From Planctomycetota bacterium (GTDB taxonomy: Bacteria > Planctomycetota > UBA1135 > GCA-002686595): 64,000 nucleotides of DNA. A program made the position numbers and the translations under genes. Where the stretch lies: positions 34,525 through 98,524 of the forward strand of contig JACRIN010000066.1 in NCBI GenBank assembly GCA_016220085.1. Reading direction: 5' to 3'. Under the pieces are notes generated by a model. It saw nothing but the letters and a program-made list of their open reading frames with translations. It did no database searches and had not been told where the DNA came from. How positions within the stretch are numbered: the stretch's first letter is position 1; the number at the start of each line of letters is the position of its first letter. Below, in pieces: positions 9,794-17,218 of the stretch.

Positions 9794-10960
9794 ATGCAGG
9801 CATCGAAACTCTTGCTCGCCATCGCCTCGCTCGCCTCTGTCACGACCGCGGGAACGTACGTCGTCGACGCTGCGGGCGGCGGTGACTTCACCGACCTGGC
9901 ACCGGCGATCGCCTTCGCGTCGCCGGGCGACGTGCTCTTGATCCAGCCCGGCAACTACGGCGGTTTCACGCTCGACAAGCGACTGACGCTCGTCGGCCAG
10001 GGCGCGGGCGTGATCGTCAACGGTCCGGCGACGATCCGAGACATCGTCGCAGGGAACGCGACCTCGATCGTCGGCGTGCGCTTCTCGAACTCGCTCGAGG
10101 TCACCCAGTGCACGCGGCCCGTCGTGTTCGACGATGTGACGTCGTCGAGCCGCGGACTCATCGTCGACGGCTCGAGTGACGTGCGCGTCTCGCGTTCGTA
10201 CCTCGATGGTTGGGACCAGTACGCGGGTTTGACGGGTACGTGCCTGGTAGTCGATTCCCGAGTGGAACTCGCGAGCTCGGTCGTGCTCGGCGAACCGGGA
10301 AGCGACGGGGCCTTCACGGTCCCTGGCGACGGCCTCGAAGCGCTGATCGGAAGTGGTGCCGTCGTCGGCGTCCACCTCTACCGCTCCACGCTGATCGGCG
10401 GCGATGGAGGCCACGACTTGGGAGGCTTCTTCCCCAGCGGGCAGGGCGCGGCCGCCGTTCGGCTCGACGACGCAGGCACGGTCCTGGCCGCAGGCACGGC
10501 CCAGGACATGCTGCTCGGCGGGTCGGACGACAACGGCCAGGCTGCGGGAGTCCGCGCATGGTCGGGTTCCGTCCGCCATTCGTCCGTCGTGACGAGCGGC
10601 GTATACGCCGCGTACGTCGAGACGCCTCCGATTCCGGACCCGAGCCTCTACTTCGTCGGCACGCCGACGCCGGGCTCCGTGACGACTTTCCGGATCGCCG
10701 CACCGGTGGGCTCCACGGTCGACCTGCGCATGGGGCGGTTCCCGACGATCGTGGACGTGCCCGGGCTCGCCGAAGACGTGCTCGTGACGCCCCAACGCAC
10801 TTTCCACCTGGGCGCGGTCGGCGCGAGCGGTGTCATCGGTTTCAACTTCCCGATGCCCGGATCGTTCCCGAAGGGCTTCACGTTCTTCGCGCAAGCCAAG
10901 GTGACGATCGCCCCAGGCGACGAGCGCTACACGAACTCGGTGCCGATCGTCCTGCGTTGA
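9794..10960 (+). CDS. Secreted right-handed beta-helix-like protein (388 aa)
   Basis: Signal peptide MQASKLLLAIASLASVTTA. YVVDAAGGGDFTDLAPAIAFASPGDVLLIQPGNYGGFTL is the typical opening of pectin-lyase-fold proteins. GGGAGA lies upstream of the ATG. Confidence 0.6.
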   Translation: MQASKLLLAIASLASVTTAGTYVVDAAGGGDFTDLAPAIAFASPGDVLLIQPGNYGGFTLDKRLTLVGQGAGVIVNGPATIRDIVAGNATSIVGVRFSNSLEVTQCTRPVVFDDVTSSSRGLIVDGSSDVRVSRSYLDGWDQYAGLTGTCLVVDSRVELASSVVLGEPGSDGAFTVPGDGLEALIGSGAVVGVHLYRSTLIGGDGGHDLGGFFPSGQGAAAVRLDDAGTVLAAGTAQDMLLGGSDDNGQAAGVRAWSGSVRHSSVVTSGVYAAYVETPPIPDPSLYFVGTPTPGSVTTFRIAAPVGSTVDLRMGRFPTIVDVPGLAEDVLVTPQRTFHLGAVGASGVIGFNFPMPGSFPKGFTFFAQAKVTIAPGDERYTNSVPIVLR

Positions 10961-11038
10961 GCCGGCCGGCCGGATCCGGTGCACAATGAGGAGTCGCGAG
11001 CTCCCGCATTGCAAGACCCCGCCCGACTTCGTATCAGG

Positions 11039-11674
11039 ATGCCCGAAGTGCCGGGTGACCAAGCTGATTCCGCGCCGCCCAACTTGACGACCAGCGCGGA
11101 GGACGAGGAGCTCGTCCGAGGCCTGCTCGCGGGCGACGGACAGGCCGTCGAGCGCTTCATCGCGCGCTATCGGCCGTTGTTCCAACACTGCCTCGCGCAC
11201 TTCGAGTCCGATCCGATCGCGCGCGAGGATCTCTACCAGATGCTGCTCTGGCACGCGCTCGAGCGCCTGCGTCAGGGCGCTTTCGACGGCACCAAGGGCG
11301 CGTTCGGCACGTGGCTGTATCGCGTCGCCTGGTGCCGTTGCGTCGATTTGAAGCGCAAGGACAACGCGCGCCGCCGCGTGCCGGTCCGCCTGGCGGACGA
11401 CGAGCTTCCCGACGGACCGGATCCGAGCCCTGGCCCGGAAGAACTGGTCGGCGACGAGGAAGTCGGTGCGCTGGTGCGCGCGGCGCTCGCGGAAATCGCG
11501 CCCGAAGAGCGCGACCTGCTCGTGCTGCGCTTCGTCGACGGCCTGACGTTGACCGACGTCGCCGCGCAACTCCAGCTCTCGGTCGAGCAGACCAAGTACC
11601 GACTGAAGCGCGCCAGCTCGGCGCTGCGCAAGGCGTTGATCACCCGACTTCCTCGGGCGGAGGCGGTGGAATGA
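11039..11674 (+). CDS. ECF (group IV) RNA polymerase sigma factor
   Basis: Sigma-2 region ERFIARYRPLFQHCLAHF...DLYQMLLWHALERL, and sigma-4 HTH LVLRFVDGLTLTDVAAQLQLSVEQTKYRLKRA. An alternative GTG start lies at 10979. Confidence 0.85.
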   Translation: MPEVPGDQADSAPPNLTTSAEDEELVRGLLAGDGQAVERFIARYRPLFQHCLAHFESDPIAREDLYQMLLWHALERLRQGAFDGTKGAFGTWLYRVAWCRCVDLKRKDNARRRVPVRLADDELPDGPDPSPGPEELVGDEEVGALVRAALAEIAPEERDLLVLRFVDGLTLTDVAAQLQLSVEQTKYRLKRASSALRKALITRLPRAEAVE

Positions 11675-11732
11675 GCGTTTCCCGAGCGGATTTTGCGCCC
11701 GAAACCGCGGCGATTTGCGGAGTCACGGCCGG

Positions 11733-12851
11733 ATGAACCCTGTCCCCAAGCATCCTGAACACGCCTCGGAATGCGTGCGCGCGGATCTGGCGGGTGATCT
11801 GATCCGCTGGGACGAGCTCGATTTCCGTCGCCGTGTCGAACTCGAGACCCACGCGACGACCTGCCCGACGTGCGGGCCCGCGCTCGCGCTGCTGCGCCGC
11901 GCCGATGCGTGGCTGAACGGCCAAGGACGGCACGTCCAAGCCGCGCACTTCGAGGCGGGCGCCTGCCCCGACGCCGAGGTGCTCTACGACTACGGCCAGG
12001 GCCCGGGCGCGAATCCGCTCCCCGAGCACCGCCGCAAGTCGGTCGACGCCCACCTGCTGGTCTGCGCGGAGTGCCGCGAGCTGGTGACGACGCTGGCGAG
12101 CCGCCCGCCGTCGCCGCTCTTGCTCGACGCGCCCGCGGAGCCCGGGTTCGACCGCCAGGCCGAACTCGACCGCCCGAGCGAGCCCGTCCCGACTCCGGTG
12201 CGCCGGCAAGACCGTCGCCCCGCTCCGGCGCGGCGCTGGCTCTGGATCCCGGCCGCCGCCGCGGCGCTGGTGCTCGTCGCGCTCGGCCTGTGGTGGCGCA
12301 GCGTCTCCGCCAACGACGGCGATCGACTGGTCGCCCAGGGCATCTTCCCGGCCGAGGAGGTGCTGCGCGGCGGGGACGGCGCCGAGCTCTACTACCCGCG
12401 CGGCGCGGTGCTCGCGCTCGACGGCCGGCCGTGGCACGCGACGACGTTCGAGGTCGCGCCGCGCGCCGACGCGCAGGGCTATCGTTGGGTGCTCTTCGCG
12501 CGCGACGGCGCCGCGCTCGGCGCGAGCCGCGAAATCGCGCGCTGGAAGACCGCCGAACCGAACACCACGTTCACCGGCGCCGAGCTCGGGCTCGGTCGCT
12601 TCACGTGGGAAGCGTGGGCGCTGGTCGGAGGCCTCGAGGTCCACCTCGGGCGCGCCGACTTCCACGTCAGAGCCGACGCGGCCGCCGACGGCCTGCTCGC
12701 GGCTCTCGAGCTCTCGGGCGACGAACGCGCGAGAGCCGTGCTCGTTTGGCTGCACGACCGTGGCTACCTCGGCGACGCCCGCGCGTTCGCGCGCACGCTG
12801 CCGCCGACTCCCGAGCGCGATGCGTACCTCGCACGCAAGCCCGGCCGCTGA
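11733..12851 (+). CDS. Membrane anti-sigma factor with two zinc-binding (HxxxCxxC) motifs (372 aa)
   Basis: Motifs H40-ATT-C-PT-C47 and H107-LLV-C-AE-C114, one TM (RRWLWIPAAAAALVLVALGLWW) and a ~185-aa C-terminal outside domain. It lies directly downstream of the ECF sigma gene. The track's TTG start at 11715 is an alternative. Confidence 0.7.
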   Translation: MNPVPKHPEHASECVRADLAGDLIRWDELDFRRRVELETHATTCPTCGPALALLRRADAWLNGQGRHVQAAHFEAGACPDAEVLYDYGQGPGANPLPEHRRKSVDAHLLVCAECRELVTTLASRPPSPLLLDAPAEPGFDRQAELDRPSEPVPTPVRRQDRRPAPARRWLWIPAAAAALVLVALGLWWRSVSANDGDRLVAQGIFPAEEVLRGGDGAELYYPRGAVLALDGRPWHATTFEVAPRADAQGYRWVLFARDGAALGASREIARWKTAEPNTTFTGAELGLGRFTWEAWALVGGLEVHLGRADFHVRADAAADGLLAALELSGDERARAVLVWLHDRGYLGDARAFARTLPPTPERDAYLARKPGR

Positions 12852-12888
12852 GCTGTCAGGTTCCCTCGGGCTCGCTTAGCCTGAAGCC

Positions 12889-15351
12889 GTGCTCCTCGCG
12901 CTCCTCTTGACGGTGTGGCAGGGCGGTTCGCCGACCGGCGAGCCCTGCGACTCGCAGCTCACCACGTTCCGCGAAGCGCTGACGCCGATGCGGATGGGCG
13001 ACGCGGAGGCCCGGCGGCGCACGCTCGAGAGCGCGGAGTTCCTCGCCGTCGCCTGCGGACGCCCGGAGTGCCTCGCCGTCGCGAAGTACTACGCCGCGCT
13101 CGACGCGGACGCGCTCGCCGACGGGCTCGCTCTCGAGCAACGCGTGCAAACGGTGCGCGGCGAATTCAACGCGGCGTACGACCGCGGGATCGACCTCGCC
13201 GAATGGCGCGCGGCGCTGCCGACCTGGATCGCCGAGCTCGACGCACTCGCCGATTCCGGAGAGCGGCAACCGGATTGGACGGCCGGCTTGCGCGCGCGAA
13301 GCACCGCGGCGCGGCTGCGCATCGCGCTGGTGAAGCTCGACCTCGAGCTCGCCCCCGAGGCGCGCAACGCGCTGGTCGTCCGCGCGGGCCGAGACCTCGA
13401 CCAGGCGCTCGCGGGTTTCGAGCGCGCGGGCCAGCTCGGCTCGACGCTGGAACCGCGGTGGCTCTCCGCGCGGCTCGCGCAGATGGCGGGCGCTCGTTCA
13501 GACGCGCGCGAGAGCTTCGAACGCTGCGCCACCGACGCGTTGCACCTCGGCGTTCCGGCGTACGCGATCTACGCGCAAGAGGGCCTGCTCGGCGTCGCGC
13601 GCGACGGCGGCGACCTCGGCGCCGAGGAGCGCGCCCTCGCGGCGCTCGCGCGGCTCACCCCCGGCGAGCAGACGTGGTCCGTCACGCGCGAGTGGGCGAC
13701 CTTGCTGCTCTCGGCGGACCACACGCGCGAGGCGTGGGACTATCTCGAGCGCCACGCGCCGAGCGAAGACGCCGTCGCCGATCGCGCCGACTGGCACTTC
13801 GTCGCCGGCGCGGCCGCGTTGCGAGCGCGTCGGCTCGACGCGGCGCGCACCCACCTCGCGGCGGCGACCGCGGGGCGCGCGGACGCGGGCGCGGTGCTGA
13901 TGCTCGCAAGGCTCGAGCTCGTCTCCGGCCGTCCCGAAGCCGCCGAGGAACTGATCGAGAGCTCGCTCGCGTCGATCGACCTCGATTTCTCGGCGGAAGC
14001 CCAACGCCACGCGTTGCTCGGCGAGGCCGCGTTCGTGCAAGGCCGGCTGCCGCGCGCGCGCGACGAGCTCACGCAGGCGCTCGCGGTCGCGCGCAGCTGG
14101 GAGGCGTTCATCGAGCGTTCCCCGCTCTCGCCTGCGGATCCGCGCGCGGCGACCAACGTGATCGGCGAGTGGCTCGGCGTGCACAGCGTCGCGTTGCTCG
14201 CGTCGACCCACGCGCGCGCCGGCGATCCGCTCGAAGCGGCGCGCGTGATCGAGGAGCTGCAATCGCGCGGCTTGCGCCGCAGCGGCACGCCGGGCGCCGA
14301 ATTGCGCTCGCTCGCCGGCCTGGCGTCCGCGGAACTCACGACCGACGACCTGCGCGCGTGGGCGGCGAGCCACGAGGCCGGGTTGGTCACCTGGGTGCTC
14401 GGTGCCGACTTCGGCGTCGTCGTGCACGTCTCCTCGGCCGGACGCGCGACCGCGGCGCGGGTCGAGCTCGGGCGCGCGGAGCTCGCCGACCTCGCGCGGC
14501 GCTTCGAGGAAGCGCTGCTCGACACCGACGAGGAATGGCGCGGGACGTTGGCGCGCGAGCTCGCTCGGTTGCTCTTCCCCGAGCCCGTCGCGAACGCGCT
14601 CGCCGCGGAACGCGACGACGCCGCGTTGCTCTGCTTGCCGCACGGCGTGATCGAAGGACTCGCGCTCGAACGCGTCGAGCTCGCCAGTCGCGCGCTCGAG
14701 GATCGCTTCGTGCTCTCGGTGCTGCCGGGCCTGGTCGCACCGCGTCCGCGCGCGGCGCGTCCGATCGCACGCTGGAGCTTCCTCGGCGCGCCGAGCGGAA
14801 GCCGCGCTCGCGAACTTCCGTCGGCGCGCGCGGAGCTCGAGCGGCTCGCCGCGAACGCCGCCGGCTCGCGGCTCGCGCTCGGCGACGCGTGCACGCGCGA
14901 AGCGTTGCTCGCCGCGCTCACCGACGGCGGTGCGCTGCACATCGCGACGCACGCGCTGCGCACGGGTCTGGACGCGGGCGGACGCTACGCGCCGATCGGA
15001 CTAGAGGTCGCGGGCGGCGACATCGTCGGCGCGGACGAGCTGCGTCGACGCGCGGGCGCGCTCGAGCTCGTCGTGCTCTCGTCCTGCGCGAGCGCGCACG
15101 GACGCATGCTCGACTCGGAAGGCCTCCATGGGATCGCGCGCGCCTTCCTCGAAGCCGGCGCGCGCGACGTCGTCGCGACGTTACGGCCGGTCGGCGACCG
15201 CGCGGCGCACGATTTCGCGCTCGCGTTCCAGCGCCGGCTCGCCGACGGCGACTCGCGCGCGATCGCGGTGCGCGGCGCGCGGCGCGAGCTCGCGGCGGGC
15301 GGCCATCGGGCGGCCGATTGGACGGCGTTCCGGTTGCTCGGGCAGGACTAA
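12889..15351 (+). CDS. CHAT-domain (caspase-fold) protease with a long helical, TPR-like N-terminal region (820 aa)
   Basis: The C-terminal ~250 aa carry CHAT hallmarks: GALHIATHA (His), ELVVLSSCASAHG (Cys), GIARAFLEAGARDVVATL and WTAFRLLG. The N-terminal 550 aa are Ala/Leu/Arg-rich and helical. The TPR-like call rests on composition only. GTG start. Confidence 0.75.
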   Translation: MLLALLLTVWQGGSPTGEPCDSQLTTFREALTPMRMGDAEARRRTLESAEFLAVACGRPECLAVAKYYAALDADALADGLALEQRVQTVRGEFNAAYDRGIDLAEWRAALPTWIAELDALADSGERQPDWTAGLRARSTAARLRIALVKLDLELAPEARNALVVRAGRDLDQALAGFERAGQLGSTLEPRWLSARLAQMAGARSDARESFERCATDALHLGVPAYAIYAQEGLLGVARDGGDLGAEERALAALARLTPGEQTWSVTREWATLLLSADHTREAWDYLERHAPSEDAVADRADWHFVAGAAALRARRLDAARTHLAAATAGRADAGAVLMLARLELVSGRPEAAEELIESSLASIDLDFSAEAQRHALLGEAAFVQGRLPRARDELTQALAVARSWEAFIERSPLSPADPRAATNVIGEWLGVHSVALLASTHARAGDPLEAARVIEELQSRGLRRSGTPGAELRSLAGLASAELTTDDLRAWAASHEAGLVTWVLGADFGVVVHVSSAGRATAARVELGRAELADLARRFEEALLDTDEEWRGTLARELARLLFPEPVANALAAERDDAALLCLPHGVIEGLALERVELASRALEDRFVLSVLPGLVAPRPRAARPIARWSFLGAPSGSRARELPSARAELERLAANAAGSRLALGDACTREALLAALTDGGALHIATHALRTGLDAGGRYAPIGLEVAGGDIVGADELRRRAGALELVVLSSCASAHGRMLDSEGLHGIARAFLEAGARDVVATLRPVGDRAAHDFALAFQRRLADGDSRAIAVRGARRELAAGGHRAADWTAFRLLGQD

Positions 15352-15413
15352 GAGCGCGAACTTCGGAGCTCGGTGAGCGCGAGCACGCGGACCGGTGTCC
15401 CGCGCGAGGCCCA

Positions 15414-15501
15414 GTCGCGTGTGACGCTCGGCCGCGTGTGAAGCCCGGCCGCGTGCGACGCTCGACCGCGCGTGTCACTCGCGGGTCGCGTGGGACCGAT
15501 C
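15414..15501. repeat. Five degenerate tandem copies of a ~17-bp unit (consensus about CCGCGTGTGACGCTCGG)
   Basis: Read directly: gtcgcgtgtgacgctcgg / ccgcgtgtgaagcccgg / ccgcgtgcgacgctcga / ccgcgcgtgtcactcgcggg / tcgcgtgggaccgatcc. Located in the 308-bp spacer between the CHAT gene and the next gene. Confidence 0.7.
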
Positions 15502-15659
15502 CGAGGGATGGGTCTCGCCCCGACGAGAGCACCTGCAAGTTGCTCCAGGAGCGGGAAGGTCCTTCGCAACGCGGTCTTCGAAGCTCAAGCGGACTCCGGG
15601 GCGATCCGAAGAAACGGGCGCCGATACGTCTCCCCACCGAACCGGCAAGGACGACCCCC

Positions 15660-16205
15660 ATGCAGATCCGCCATCTCATCCCCGTCGCGGTGATCGCTTG
15701 CTCGGCCGAACTCGCGGCGAGCGACATCGGCGACTTCCAAGCCCAAGGCATCGAACTCCTCGCGCGGGTCTCGCCGACCGTGTTCGAAGCGCTCAATCCG
15801 ACGACGCAGCCCGTCATGCTGTGTTTCACGGCGCCGGACACCGGCGCGACCGCGACGGCGATCGTGCCCGGACTCGCCGAAGTCCAATTCCAGTTCCCCG
15901 CCGGTAGCGCGACCAACCTGCTGCTCGAAGTCACGTCCGTCGTCGACGGCGTGGCGACGACCACGGCCGCGGTCCCGCTCGGAATGCTGGAGGACCCGAC
16001 CGTCGACGCGATGTGGGTGCAGCGACTCGACACCGACCTGCACAGCTTCGCGCAACTCGGCGAGAGCTTCCAATCGATCGACCCGACGACCACCGGCGGC
16101 ACCGAGTGCTCGAGCAGCGGCTCGCACGTGCCCGAGGTCTCGCCGATCCTGCTCCCGACGCCCGAGCTACCGAAGAAGATCGAACCGTGGGTTCCGCCGG
16201 CGTGA
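15660..16205 (+). CDS. Secreted hypothetical protein (181 aa)
   Basis: ATG 15660 (MQIRHLIPVAVIACSAELAAS signal peptide), taken from the tail of the spurious 1096-aa track ORF. Thr/Pro-rich C-terminus. Confidence 0.55.
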   Translation: MQIRHLIPVAVIACSAELAASDIGDFQAQGIELLARVSPTVFEALNPTTQPVMLCFTAPDTGATATAIVPGLAEVQFQFPAGSATNLLLEVTSVVDGVATTTAAVPLGMLEDPTVDAMWVQRLDTDLHSFAQLGESFQSIDPTTTGGTECSSSGSHVPEVSPILLPTPELPKKIEPWVPPA

Positions 16206-16414
16206 GCCGATCACGCGCCGGGACGTTTGGGGCGCGCCCCTCCGACGCGACGCAGTCCGTCGCACCCGGCCGTTAGCACAGGTTTCCTGAGAGACGCCTG
16301 AGAGAGAAGGACGAACGGCGACGAGCTCTCGAGGCTCGCCGCCGCTCTCCTTTTGATGCGCGTCGTCGACGCGGGCTCGATGCGAGTCGTCGGCTGCGCT
16401 ACCATCCGCGCAAC

Positions 16415-17218
16415 ATGCCCAGCTACATCGACACCGCGATCGAACGTGCTTGGAGCTTGCTCGATCGCGGCGAGCCCCAGAAGGCGCTCGACCTGATGGC
16501 GGGCGTCGACTCCAACGCCGCGCGGCGCTGGGTGGTCGAATCGTCCGCGTACCTCGAGCTCGACGACCTCGCGAAGGCGCGCGCGTCGATCGACCGGGCG
16601 AGCGCGCTGCCGGGCATCGACGGCGACTTGAACTACCAGTGGACGAAGGCGGAGATCTGCCTGCGCGAGTGGAAGCTCGCCGAGGCCGACGAGCTCTACC
16701 AAAAGGTCGCCGCCGCCGAGCGGACGTCCGCGGTGCTCGAACGGTTGTCGCTGCTCTCCGATCTGCGCCACGACCAGGCGGGCGCCGATCGGCTGCTCGC
16801 CGAGGCCGAGGAAATCGACGCCGACGAAGCCCCGCACCCGCCGCGGCTCTCGCCTCAGCAGTTCGAGCACGTGCTCGACGAAGCGATCGAGCTCCTGCCC
16901 GAGGAATTCCGCGCCGCGCTCGACGCGGTGCGCGTCGTGATCGAAGCGGTGCCGACCGAGTCGATGATCGACAAGTCCGACTGCGCCGAGACGCCGCCCG
17001 ACATGCTCGGCCTGTTCGTCGGCTCGTCGAAGCTCGACCAGAGCGCCGAGGACTCCGCGGTGCTGCCGCCGCAGATCTTCCTCTTCCAGCGCAACCTGGA
17101 GCGCGCGTCGATCGATCGCGACGAGCTCCTGCACGAGATTCGCATCACGCTCTATCACGAACTCGGCCACTACCTAGGTTTCGACGAGGAAGGCGTGGCC
17201 GGCATGGGCCTCGAGTAG
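16415..17218 (+). CDS. TPR-like N-terminal region fused to a zincin-like metallopeptidase domain (DUF1025-type), 267 aa
   Basis: C-terminal LFQRNLERAS...EIRITLYHELGHYLGFDEE contains an HExxH motif in the context typical of the small 'possible zinc metallopeptidase' family. Confidence 0.6.
   Translation: MPSYIDTAIERAWSLLDRGEPQKALDLMAGVDSNAARRWVVESSAYLELDDLAKARASIDRASALPGIDGDLNYQWTKAEICLREWKLAEADELYQKVAAAERTSAVLERLSLLSDLRHDQAGADRLLAEAEEIDADEAPHPPRLSPQQFEHVLDEAIELLPEEFRAALDAVRVVIEAVPTESMIDKSDCAETPPDMLGLFVGSSKLDQSAEDSAVLPPQIFLFQRNLERASIDRDELLHEIRITLYHELGHYLGFDEEGVAGMGLE

Follow-up and report, generated by a model that had tools for sequence, protein, structure and literature searches.

The window, i.e., the whole 64,000-nt stretch of Planctomycetota DNA analyzed here, carries three closely spaced genes on its forward (+) strand: an ECF-type sigma factor gene (11039..11674), a gene encoding a 372-aa anti-sigma factor (11733..12851), and a gene encoding an 820-aa TPR-CHAT protein (12889..15351). 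All three open reading frames are present with the gaps of 58 nt and 37 nt given in an earlier note on this DNA. That note had regarded the trio as self-contained, which did not hold, since a fourth conserved gene that it overlooked, here called fam5 (15660..16205, + strand; 181-aa product), trails the CHAT gene and has a promoter-like motif of its own. The genes around the module are metabolic or efflux genes, and the neighborhood is housekeeping in character.

The first gene indeed encodes an ECF sigma factor. Pfam matches to Sigma70_r2 (30.8 bits), r4 (39.5 bits), and r4_2 (34.6 bits) were all above their cut-offs, as was TIGR02937 (sigma70-ECF) with 81.4 bits against a cut-off of 42.9, and these domains place the protein in the ECF (group 4) sigma-70 family. 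No further domains besides the sigma-70 regions were found with Pfam and NCBIfam, and the NCBIfam equivalog and subfamily models all scored far under their cut-offs. The closest PDB sequence relatives are ECF sigma factors, and homologs with 47–59% identity occupy the same position in 25 loci. Upstream lies a promoter-like motif, TTGCAA-N17-TATCAG (11009..11037, + strand), with the family consensus TTGCA[A/T]-N17-TATnCC. TTGCA-containing hexamers are enriched in front of the sigma gene; CTTGCA occurs there in 13 of 23 loci versus 0.9 expected. In 18 of 26 loci the complete motif is present, its spacer being 17 nt without exception. A strict pattern, which misses the window's own TATCAG variant, matched 13 of 30 loci, once in each and always immediately 5′ of the sigma gene; a strict sigma-70 scan rejects the motif because its −10 element does not end in T. 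Since the conserved motif ends at 11037, ATG 11039 is probably not the true start of the sigma gene, and GTG 11048 or TTG 11084 would be likelier if the upstream promoter is real.

The second gene product contains the two H-x3-C-x2-C motifs reported earlier (H40ATTCPTC47 and H107LLVCAEC114) and a single transmembrane (TM) segment, with 184 aa outside (given earlier as ~185 aa). Each motif has a Cys upstream, forming the zinc-type sites C14-x25-H40-x3-C44-x2-C47 and C78-x28-H107-x3-C111-x2-C114, and the [H/C]-x23-26-H-x3-C-x2-C signature of class I/ZAS anti-sigma factors was found. PF13490 (zf-HC2) detected the second motif only, at 21.0 bits, just below its gathering cut-off of 22.2. In the family-profile search, the best PDB sequence match was the anti-sigma chain of 3hug (E = 9e-4). 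In the AF2 model (pLDDT 79.8), each zinc-type site falls on one of two predicted three-helix bundles, which are followed by a TM helix, then a beta sandwich, and finally a helical terminus. Along the + strand, the coding sequence thus specifies ZAS-like unit 1 (aa 14–61, nt 11772–11915), ZAS-like unit 2 (aa 78–122, nt 11964–12098), a disordered linker, an Arg-rich stretch followed by the hydrophobic TM segment WLWIPAAAAALVLVALGLWW (aa 169–188, nt 12237–12296), a juxtamembrane F-P-x4-L-R212-G loop (nt 12363–12371), a predicted Ig-like beta sandwich (aa 219–314, nt 12387–12674), and a conserved helical C-terminus ending PGR (aa 318–372, nt 12684–12848).

We then compared this protein with its family, which comprises 170 clusters (50% identity) at E ≤ 1e-30. 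The tandem ZAS duplication that the earlier note singled out is real, with its two predicted bundles, but it is not family-wide: about half of the homologs lack the first zinc motif, and three lack both. In a 25-sequence alignment, C78, H107, C111, C114, R212, and the C-terminal R are invariant, and the C-terminal tail is near-invariant. Besides the ZAS unit, the most conserved regions are extracytoplasmic. They include the outer-part motif P-x4-[LVM]-R-G-x5-L-x-[FY]-P-R-[DG], which at least 40 of 49 homologs share and which lies in a low-confidence loop of the model (residues 211–216); the L-R-G motif could not be aligned in distant non-Planctomycete anti-sigma factors. Representatives of the best 150 of the 170 clusters span 169–565 aa, the shortest looking like fragments, and none of these 150 is long enough to hold a fused CHAT domain.

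The third gene product has a helical scaffold/TPR region (aa 19–475, with weak TPR Pfam matches) and a C-terminal CHAT domain (PF12770, aa 554–818, nt 14548–15342, + strand; E = 6e-34). The sequence contexts ALHIATHA and LVVLSSCASA, put forward earlier as those of a His/Cys dyad, were located at H688 (nt 14950–14952) and C733 (nt 15085–15087). Both residues are invariant in an 11-sequence family alignment, and the HxxTHx and LSxC contexts also appear in distant CHAT homologs. Judged by sequence, this is a CHAT domain of the clan CD caspase fold with conserved, presumably catalytic, His and Cys, and the invariance of this dyad speaks for an active protease whose substrate is conserved. A hydrophobic, signal-peptide-like N-terminus was present in all 30 evaluable CHAT homologs, in most of them preceded by Arg/Lys. 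In the window, this segment (MLLALLLTVWQGG; aa 1–17, nt 12889–12939, + strand) is short and has no basic n-region, and a longer N-terminus is excluded by an in-frame TAG at 12877–12879. From these N-termini, the CHAT protein appears to be exported.

An AF2 model of the CHAT protein (pLDDT 84.6) was searched with Foldseek, and its top matches were, in order, DdvA, Csx29, and separase. The best match was to the periplasmic region of DdvA (8rw5/8rot_A; E ~2e-14, 18% identity, ~860–920 columns), whereas Csx29 (7y8t_B, 8eey_B) followed at E ~1e-12 with only 12% identity. DdvA of Myxococcus xanthus naturally unites ZAS, TM, and periplasmic TPR-CHAT portions in one chain (PMC11506125).

The match to Csx29 bears on the Craspase-like logic proposed in the earlier note. 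In type III-E CRISPR systems, the TPR-CHAT protease Csx29 cuts Csx30, a restrainer of an ECF sigma factor (PMC10028731). This precedent and the significant fold similarity to Csx29 favor a cytoplasmic switch in the window, in which CHAT would cut the sigma-binding cytoplasmic part of the anti-sigma factor. What stands of the proposal is a conserved sigma/anti-sigma/TPR-CHAT unit that does without CRISPR-Cas: a search of the 64-kb window for CRISPR-like repeat arrays turned up none, and no cas model, Cas7-11 included, occurs among the PADLOC matches listed for 37 window proteins (25 of 31 matched families), all of which are kinase-type and fall on one protein. No CBASS or CRISPR regulon was seen near the module either, and identity with a type III-E Craspase module was rejected on the missing array, the PADLOC matches listed, and the metabolic and efflux neighbors. 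The implied cytoplasmic protease, however, was not supported. The signal-peptide-like N-termini in 30/30 CHAT homologs, the periplasmic DdvA rather than Csx29 as the closest structure, the extracytoplasmic position of the most conserved anti-sigma regions besides the ZAS unit, and the lack of an array and of a listed Cas7-11 match all speak against it, and we regard a cytoplasmic switch as highly improbable.

To assess the linkage, we surveyed the neighborhoods of CHAT homologs, as the earlier note had suggested. Of the Planctomycetota loci, 28 were evaluable, and 27 of these have the anti-sigma gene directly 5′ of CHAT; sigma and anti-sigma genes together precede CHAT on the same strand in 26 of the 30 CHAT-seeded loci from this phylum. 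The anti-sigma gene sits at a contig edge in one more locus, and contig ends truncate three others; L011 is the only CHAT-seeded Planctomycetota locus without the pair. Three divergent anti-sigma-seeded loci (L037–L039) all read sigma/anti-sigma/CHAT/small protein, with a 4-nt overlap of the sigma and anti-sigma genes in two and a 32-nt overlap of the anti-sigma and CHAT genes in one; one of these three has an unrelated context adjoining an IS481 transposase. Among distant CHAT loci labeled as other phyla, four of six have an ECF sigma gene and a single-pass anti-sigma-like gene beside a large TPR-CHAT gene, and the three N-terminally complete CHAT proteins from these four (904–1110 aa) carry a signal peptide. 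Three more anti-sigma-seeded look-ups in other-phylum records revealed the same triad, for a total of seven loci, among which gene order varies; in some, CHAT precedes the sigma/anti-sigma pair or is oriented convergently to it. The triad is a real conserved unit that occurs without CRISPR-Cas. A single ancestral locus may have given rise to all the Planctomycete loci, several of which also have flanking thiolase synteny in common, and the conserved adjacency would then be partly inherited rather than independently selected.

ECF operons often carry target genes of their own sigma factor. Accordingly, CHAT and the fam5 product could be mere outputs of the sigma regulon that act on the envelope without controlling the anti-sigma factor, and the single conserved promoter-like motif before the sigma/anti-sigma/CHAT block, from which CHAT is probably cotranscribed with sigma, is consistent with this. 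Nevertheless, we consider such an arrangement quite unlikely, given that the triad recurs in differing gene orders in distant lineages, a persistence more typical of interacting regulatory partners, and that stop and start codons overlap in some loci; the natural DdvA fusion argues likewise (PMC11506125).

The fourth gene was discovered through clustering of ORFs across loci. A family HMM, whose seed includes the aligning ~180–190-aa genes that follow CHAT in L037–L039, picks up fam5 3′ of CHAT in 23 CHAT-seeded loci, the window included. The product is a predicted secreted protein with a signal peptide and a conserved C-terminal tail, H-V-P-V-x-x-P...P-P-x-x-E-x-x-P-L-P-P-[VI], and its gene has an AAGGA ribosome-binding site. 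Searches against Pfam and the PDB returned no family and no sequence relative, respectively, and no homology to the anti-sigma ectodomain was detectable. Upstream of fam5 (15555..15611, + strand) are an inverted repeat, GAAGG-T-CCTTC (15555–15565), and the motif CTCAAG-N16-CCGAAG (15584–15611; family consensus CTCAAG-N16-CCGATA). The CTCAAG motif precedes fam5 in 23/23 loci, mostly ~45–55 nt before the ATG (range 8–65), and its distance to CGA is fixed at 17–18 nt. It matches only once in the whole 64-kb window and is absent upstream of the sigma gene. By inspection, GGAA..TTCC-type inverted repeats also occur at variable distances upstream of fam5 in many loci. With its conserved, non-sigma-70 promoter-like motif, fam5 is the best candidate for a sigma target, though the assignment is weak because neither conserved promoter-like motif resembles the textbook ECF promoter, GGAAC...CGT.

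In another reading, CHAT does not cut the anti-sigma factor at all. TPR domains commonly bind peptide tails, and securin, a pseudosubstrate, regulates separase, which shares the fold. Since the anti-sigma factor and the fam5 product both have strongly conserved C-terminal tails, and fam5 is retained across distances of ~2.3–2.9 kb from the CHAT gene in three loci (L003, L024, and L029), the exported TPR-CHAT protein could be a noncutting sensor or partner of the anti-sigma ectodomain. It might keep another site-1 protease away from the ectodomain until a ligand appears; alternatively, it might cut the fam5 product or another envelope protein, and the signal to the anti-sigma factor would then come from the resulting fragment or from the free TPR surface. 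We find this reading unlikely. The invariant dyad points to an active protease, the CHAT domain sits on the anti-sigma factor itself in the DdvA fusion, and fam5 is not obligatory, since in four loci its place is taken by an unrelated secreted protein of ~600 aa that weakly matches FG-GAP repeats.

The explanation that we prefer, and to which we give about an even chance, is that the four genes together encode an envelope signaling system, in which a predicted secreted TPR-CHAT cysteine protease and the small secreted fam5 product accompany the ECF sigma factor and its single-pass anti-sigma factor. The secreted protease probably acts extracytoplasmically, as a site-1 protease, on the external part of the anti-sigma factor and so would release sigma. 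In this scheme, the N-terminal zinc-type domains, as expected of the class I/ZAS family and in line with the neighboring position of the sigma gene, which overlaps the anti-sigma gene in some homologous loci, would hold sigma in the cytoplasm, while the 184-aa outer part and the exported TPR-CHAT protein would meet outside the cytoplasmic membrane, as both predicted topologies suggest. An envelope signal may then lead His688/Cys733 to cut the outer part, for which the flexible, near-invariant juxtamembrane L-R212-G loop is a candidate site. By analogy with RseA and DdvA, loss of the ectodomain would expose the remainder to an RseP-type site-2 protease and subsequently to cytoplasmic proteases, and the freed sigma would drive its targets, with the adjacent fam5 as the best candidate. 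The split into two genes means that the protease and its presumed substrate could be tested separately.

Several known systems resemble this module. Like the anti-sigma factors subject to regulated intramembrane proteolysis (Escherichia coli RseA with DegS/RseP; Bacillus subtilis RsiW with PrsW/RasP), the window protein is single-pass, N-in and C-out, and loss of its extracytoplasmic domain would open the way for site-2 cleavage and release of sigma. Among the proteases of those systems, DegS belongs to the PDZ serine type and PrsW to the membrane metalloproteases, whereas the presumed site-1 protease here is a predicted operon-encoded, clan CD caspase-fold cysteine protease with a TPR sensor. 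Separase shares the helical scaffold, TPR, and CHAT fold of our model but is eukaryotic, is cytoplasmic or nuclear, and has another substrate; a securin-like role for the fam5 product is pure speculation. Craspase (Cas7-11/gRAMP, Csx29, Csx30, Csx31, and RpoE) likewise brings a TPR-CHAT protease together with an ECF sigma factor and its inhibitor. It is, however, cytoplasmic and RNA-guided, with Cas7-11 and an array, and its substrate Csx30 is soluble with neither ZAS nor TM, whereas the window anti-sigma factor is a membrane protein and the TPR-CHAT protein is predicted to be exported.

Because of this predicted export and the closest structural match, the relevant precedent, not cited in the earlier note, is DdvS-DdvA of M. 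xanthus (PDB 8rot/8rw5; PMC11506125, PMC6061681), along with regulated intramembrane proteolysis. In both systems, an ECF sigma factor is paired with an anti-sigma factor that has one TM helix and a three-helix domain of the CHCC zinc type, and a scaffold-TPR-CHAT unit of the separase/craspase type lies outside the cytoplasmic membrane (in the window, predicted from the signal-peptide-like N-termini). The candidate catalytic His and Cys are 45 residues apart in each (H688/C733 and H862/C907; PMC11506125), and for both, CHAT is proposed to be a site-1-like protease acting before RseP. DdvA without its TPR-CHAT region becomes exposed to RseP, and its autoproteolysis is a hypothesis of its authors (PMC11506125). 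HMMER similarity between the window proteins and DdvA was too low for detection. A DdvA-like single polypeptide was rejected for the window, where the genes are separate, in different frames, and with an in-frame stop between them; no fusion occurs among the best 150 anti-sigma representatives. DdvA-like fusions have been reported only in Myxococcota and one Comamonas (PMC11506125), whereas the present module is from Planctomycetota. DdvA is one polypeptide of ~1000 aa; the window TPR-CHAT protein is, by prediction, separately secreted, and the anti-sigma factor differs in having its own Ig-like and helical ectodomain and a second, N-terminal ZAS-like unit. With the signal-peptide-like N-termini in 30/30 homologs and periplasmic DdvA as the best structural match, the module thus looks like DdvA split into two polypeptides, plus the extra ectodomain and ZAS-like unit. 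More tentatively, secreted TPR-CHAT proteins with an ECF sigma and a single-pass anti-sigma factor might form a widespread, cross-phylum class of envelope signaling systems with CHAT as a dedicated signal-sensing site-1 protease and the fam5 product possibly as a feedback element (target, pseudosubstrate, or cosignal); it is conceivable, if doubtful, that the Planctomycete module, the fused DdvA, and the cytoplasmic Csx29/Csx30/RpoE are variants of one ancestral circuit in which a caspase gates a sigma factor.

Three plus-strand open reading frames lie at 11039-11674, 11733-12851 and 12889-15351, with the 58- and 37-nt gaps between them that the earlier note had stated, and the identities it gave them held up. 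The first encodes an ECF sigma factor, with Pfam Sigma70_r2, r4 and r4_2 all over cut-off and TIGR02937 at 81 bits. The second encodes a 372-aa anti-sigma protein with both of the zinc motifs described (H40ATTCPTC47 and H107LLVCAEC114), a single hydrophobic segment at aa 169-188 and 184 residues beyond it; this protein is 100% identical to the NCBI protein HZA52_14230 from a "Planctomycetes bacterium" metagenome-assembled genome (MAG). The third encodes an 820-aa protein with weak TPR matches and a CHAT domain (PF12770, E = 6e-34, aa 554-818), in which H688 and C733 sit in the sequence contexts quoted for the His/Cys dyad (ALHIATHA and LVVLSSCASA). The 64-kb window likewise holds no CRISPR-like array, and none of the PADLOC matches for 37 of its proteins was to a cas gene. 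The description of a three-gene system stood only in part: the sigma/anti-sigma/CHAT unit is conserved, but a fourth conserved gene, at 15660-16205 on the plus strand, had been overlooked.

The genes around the module are of a housekeeping kind (methylmalonyl-CoA mutase, acyl-CoA dehydrogenases, thiolase, RND efflux and a PLP enzyme). PADLOC matches named PD-T4-6/mad6/kinase, considered as a possible defence system, all trace to a single Ser/Thr-kinase-WD40 protein encoded at another place in the window and were read as generic kinase similarity. Directly 5' of the sigma gene, a plus-strand gene at 9794-10960 encodes a 388-aa secreted protein that has no Pfam family and a faint NosD-like match, and it is common to the window and its closest relative, L001, only. 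Directly 3' of the module lies a plus-strand gene with TPR and Zincin_1 (PF06262) matches, metallopeptidase-like, at 16415-17218; this adjacency is not kept in other loci.

We surveyed the linkage of CHAT homologs to sigma/anti-sigma pairs, as the earlier note had proposed. With the CHAT family as seed, a genome scan gave 30 loci with close homologs, full-length or contig-truncated, from Planctomycota MAGs or MAGs labelled simply bacteria, the exception being L018, a truncated contig labelled Candidatus Paceibacteria. When these loci were searched by tblastn with the window proteins, the pair was found upstream of the CHAT gene, in the order sigma, anti-sigma, CHAT on one strand, in 26/30. Among the remaining loci, the anti-sigma gene lies at the contig edge in one, three are cut inside the CHAT gene, and L011 alone has upstream DNA (5.6 kb) that carries no such pair; this locus (L011:5656-9042) does keep CHAT together with the fourth gene and that gene's promoter. 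In the converse test, seeded with three of the most divergent anti-sigma homologs, all three loci (L037-L039) encoded sigma, anti-sigma, CHAT and a ~180-190-aa fourth protein. Two of the three had 4-nt sigma/anti-sigma overlaps, and one adjoined an IS481 transposase in place of the usual thiolase. Many loci have the thiolase and other flanking genes in common as well, so part of the conserved adjacency is inherited synteny; the sigma/anti-sigma/CHAT unit is nevertheless kept even where the flanking genes differ. A ~660-aa protein is often encoded a few genes 3' of the module in related loci (L009:6940-8940, L011:10366-12351, L039:12448-13116). Its Pfam matches are to Methyltransf_11/25 and are APH-type kinase-like, and by eye its Cys-rich N-terminus resembles a zinc ribbon. 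Absent from the window, this protein probably reflects inherited synteny.

The CHAT reading frame opens at GTG 12889 (the protein begins MLLALLLTVWQGG); an in-frame TAG at 12877 rules out any start further 5'. In 30/30 evaluable CHAT homologs, the first conserved helix comes just after a hydrophobic segment of 10 residues (mean Kyte-Doolittle >= 2.0), mostly with Arg or Lys before this segment and Ala-rich cleavage-like sites after it. The AF2 model of the CHAT protein (pLDDT 84.6) comprises a long helical scaffold/TPR region followed by the CHAT alpha/beta domain, and its best PDB fold neighbour was the periplasmic part of the Myxococcus xanthus anti-sigma factor DdvA (8rw5, 8rot_A), with E about 2e-14 and 18% identity over about 860-920 aligned columns. 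The next neighbours were Csx29 of the type III-E CRISPR system Craspase (about 1e-12, 12% identity) and then separases. The likeness to DdvA and Csx29 was seen by fold comparison only: a PDB sequence search with the CHAT protein alone gave no match, and one with the CHAT family profile gave generic TPR matches only. The earlier note had read the module as a Craspase-like switch, in which the CHAT protease would remove or process the anti-sigma. Although Csx29 is among the fold neighbours, both the export signals of the CHAT homologs and the closer match to DdvA speak against a cytoplasmic switch of this kind, which we disfavor.

We then analyzed the anti-sigma protein, the presumed substrate. 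In its AF2 model (pLDDT 79.8), two consecutive three-helix bundles (aa 17-61 and 81-122), each with one CHCC site in canonical position, are followed by a disordered linker, a transmembrane helix, a low-confidence loop at aa 211-216, an Ig-like beta sandwich at aa 219-314 and a helical C-terminal region. An Arg-rich stretch lies ahead of the hydrophobic segment at aa 169-188, and C14 and C78 precede the two H-x3-C-x2-C motifs at the canonical distance. Pfam zf-HC2 matched the second motif only, and at 21.0 bits fell short of its gathering score of 22.2. In an alignment of 25 sequences, C78, H107, C111 and C114 are invariant, while the four ligands of the first zinc-type anti-sigma (ZAS)-like unit are kept or missing as a set and its W26, W60 and L61 are invariant. 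Among 50 distinct homologs, both motifs occur in 26, the second only in 20 and none in 4, of which one is a truncated fragment and three (L025, L027 and L028) have lost both. The tandem ZAS motif that the earlier note had singled out is therefore real, with two full zinc sites, but is a feature of roughly half the family (26/50) and not of all of it. In the anti-sigmas of L025, L027 and L028, where sequences such as FLEEHPEEARW stand in place of the zinc ligands of both units (example locus L027:4652-5764), the protein is otherwise retained, as is its CHAT neighbor.

Outside the membrane, the motif P-x4-[LVM]-R-G-x5-L-x-[FY]-P-R-[DG] is present in at least 40 of 49 anti-sigma homologs, and in the window protein L211-R212-G213 lies within the flexible loop between membrane and sandwich. 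The extreme C-terminus (LPPSPERDAYLARxPGR; ...PERDAYLARKPGR in the window protein) is also strongly conserved, and its terminal Arg is invariant. Since the cut proposed for DdvA lies in a flexible juxtamembrane loop, we infer that R212 is a reasonable candidate cut site. A rival explanation is that the CHAT protein is a non-cleaving sensor, or that it cleaves something else, for example the fourth protein. A fold search with the anti-sigma model gave weak Ig/FN3-like matches only (best E = 3e-3) and no specific ectodomain family. Among 1.84 billion representatives, the anti-sigma family accounts for 170 clusters (50% identity) at E <= 1e-30; the 150 best of these range from 169 to 565 aa, the shortest looking like fragments, and all are too short to be a fused anti-sigma-CHAT protein. 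In the family representative P0195 (565 aa), the anti-sigma profile matches residues 236-554 and an extra N-terminal region of ~235 aa precedes it; this region may come from a fusion of sigma with anti-sigma, or from a miscalled gene where stop and start codons overlap.

ORF clustering placed a gene for a ~180-190-aa protein directly 3' of CHAT in the window and 22 other CHAT-seeded loci (L002:7422-7997, for example), and the three anti-sigma-seeded loci have it too (L039:9793-10326, for example). This protein combines a signal peptide with a beta-rich core and a Pro-rich conserved C-terminal tail, HVPVxxP...PPxxExxPLPP[VI], and matched neither Pfam nor, by sequence, the PDB. Kinship with the anti-sigma ectodomain, as a soluble paralog, was rejected (hhalign probability 0.1). 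Four loci swap the fourth gene for an unrelated, secreted ~600-aa protein with weak FG-GAP repeat matches (L004:9068-14372, in three tandem copies, L008:8649-10523, L016:4925-6832 and L020:8731-10503). These substitutes end in a conserved HRRK-x-IRPI-PP tail; they are not relatives of the fourth protein, nor do they share the promoter-like motif CTCAAG...CCGATA described next.

Upstream of the fourth gene, CTCAAG-N16-CCGATA is present in 23/23 loci; in the window it lies at 15584-15611, with the variant CCGAAG, and is the single pattern match in 64 kb. Many loci have a GGAA..TTCC-type inverted repeat further upstream (GAAGGTCCTTC at 15555-15565 in the window). The sigma gene is preceded in 18/26 loci by a different motif, TTGCA[A/T]-N17-TATnCC, whose spacer is always 17 nt. 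In the window this motif lies at 11009-11037. Its -10 element ends just 2 nt ahead of ATG 11039, so that GTG 11048 or TTG 11084 is probably the real start codon of the sigma gene, whose transcript may be leaderless. Neither conserved motif is a textbook ECF motif, and neither passed a strict sigma-70 promoter scan of 10800-16500, which returned nothing. The fourth-gene motif, which ahead of the sigma gene would indicate autoregulation by the same sigma, is absent there. Of the two promoters, that of the fourth gene resembles a sigma-70 promoter less, which makes this gene the best nearby candidate target of the sigma factor. A further rival reading is that the CHAT and fourth proteins are both mere outputs of the sigma factor.

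The CHAT-seeded scan also gave six distant CHAT loci, in records labelled Phenylobacterium, Aminicenantes, Kangiellaceae, Bryobacter, Acidobacteriota and Bacteroidaceae. In 4/6, a large TPR-CHAT gene adjoins genes for an ECF-type sigma and a single-pass anti-sigma-like protein (L031:160-2740, L032:3316-7888, L033:2495-7193 and L036:4300-8487). A signal peptide was found in all three of their N-terminally complete CHAT proteins (904-1110 aa), the fourth, of L031, being cut by the contig start. The distant anti-sigmas carry H-x3-C-x2-C in some cases and not in others, and all have a small beta-rich ectodomain; the L-R-G motif did not align in these non-Planctomycete proteins, which have only a P-x-G further on in common with it. 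Three further look-ups seeded with distant anti-sigmas each gave a TPR-CHAT protein (1099-1125 aa) with sigma and anti-sigma (L040:5415-10055, L041:2015-6666 and L042:2026-6696), in the order CHAT, sigma, anti-sigma or as a sigma/anti-sigma pair convergent with CHAT. Across the seven analogous triads, the CHAT proteins are about 900-1125 aa where complete. Inheritance of a single operon does not by itself readily account for a triad that comes in at least three gene orders. Sigma/anti-sigma/secreted-CHAT triads are thus spread over several lineages and are not one MAG's curiosity.

Together, these results best support a reading of the module as a split-DdvA envelope switch. From what is known of the family, the tandem ZAS-type N-terminus of the anti-sigma would hold the sigma factor; given the predicted topology, the exported TPR-CHAT protein would meet the anti-sigma ectodomain outside the membrane. 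A signal may then activate the H688/C733 dyad, leading to removal of the ectodomain, possibly at the L-R-G loop, after which, by analogy, RseP-type and cytoplasmic proteases would release the sigma factor to switch on its targets, the fourth gene perhaps among them. If this mechanism holds, a caspase-fold site-1 protease joins the known ways of ECF sigma control, and the CHAT-sigma link of type III-E systems gains a non-CRISPR context. The tandem anti-sigma domain raises a separate structural question, namely how one anti-sigma grips sigma-2 and sigma-4.

DdvA combines a ZAS domain, a transmembrane helix and a periplasmic scaffold-TPR-CHAT region in one chain; such fusions have been reported only from Myxococcota and one Comamonas, and removal of TPR-CHAT exposes DdvA to RseP (PMC11506125). 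Its authors proposed CHAT self-cleavage as the site-1 step, which could not be shown, and there the idea still stands as a hypothesis, given that a single protein is both enzyme and substrate and that its trigger is unknown (PMC11506125). Beyond that paper, our literature search found no report tying TPR-CHAT to a periplasmic anti-sigma; the main text of an ECF classification paper (PMC7826278) contains no "caspase", "peptidase" or "CHAT", and a CHAT-linked ECF group may already be annotated. The module offers a trans-acting enzyme/substrate pair on which cleavage of an anti-sigma by a CHAT domain, an idea still unproven, can be tested: with protease and presumed substrate on separate polypeptides, cleavage assays, site mapping and dyad mutants become straightforward experiments. 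Its logic is like that of DdvA, whereas DdvA's defining single-polypeptide architecture is not that of the module. With Craspase it has the three-part logic in common, but it lacks the defining Cas components and would act in another cellular compartment. Regulated intramembrane proteolysis of the RseA/DegS type is also alike, but the protease of the module is caspase-fold and encoded in the operon.
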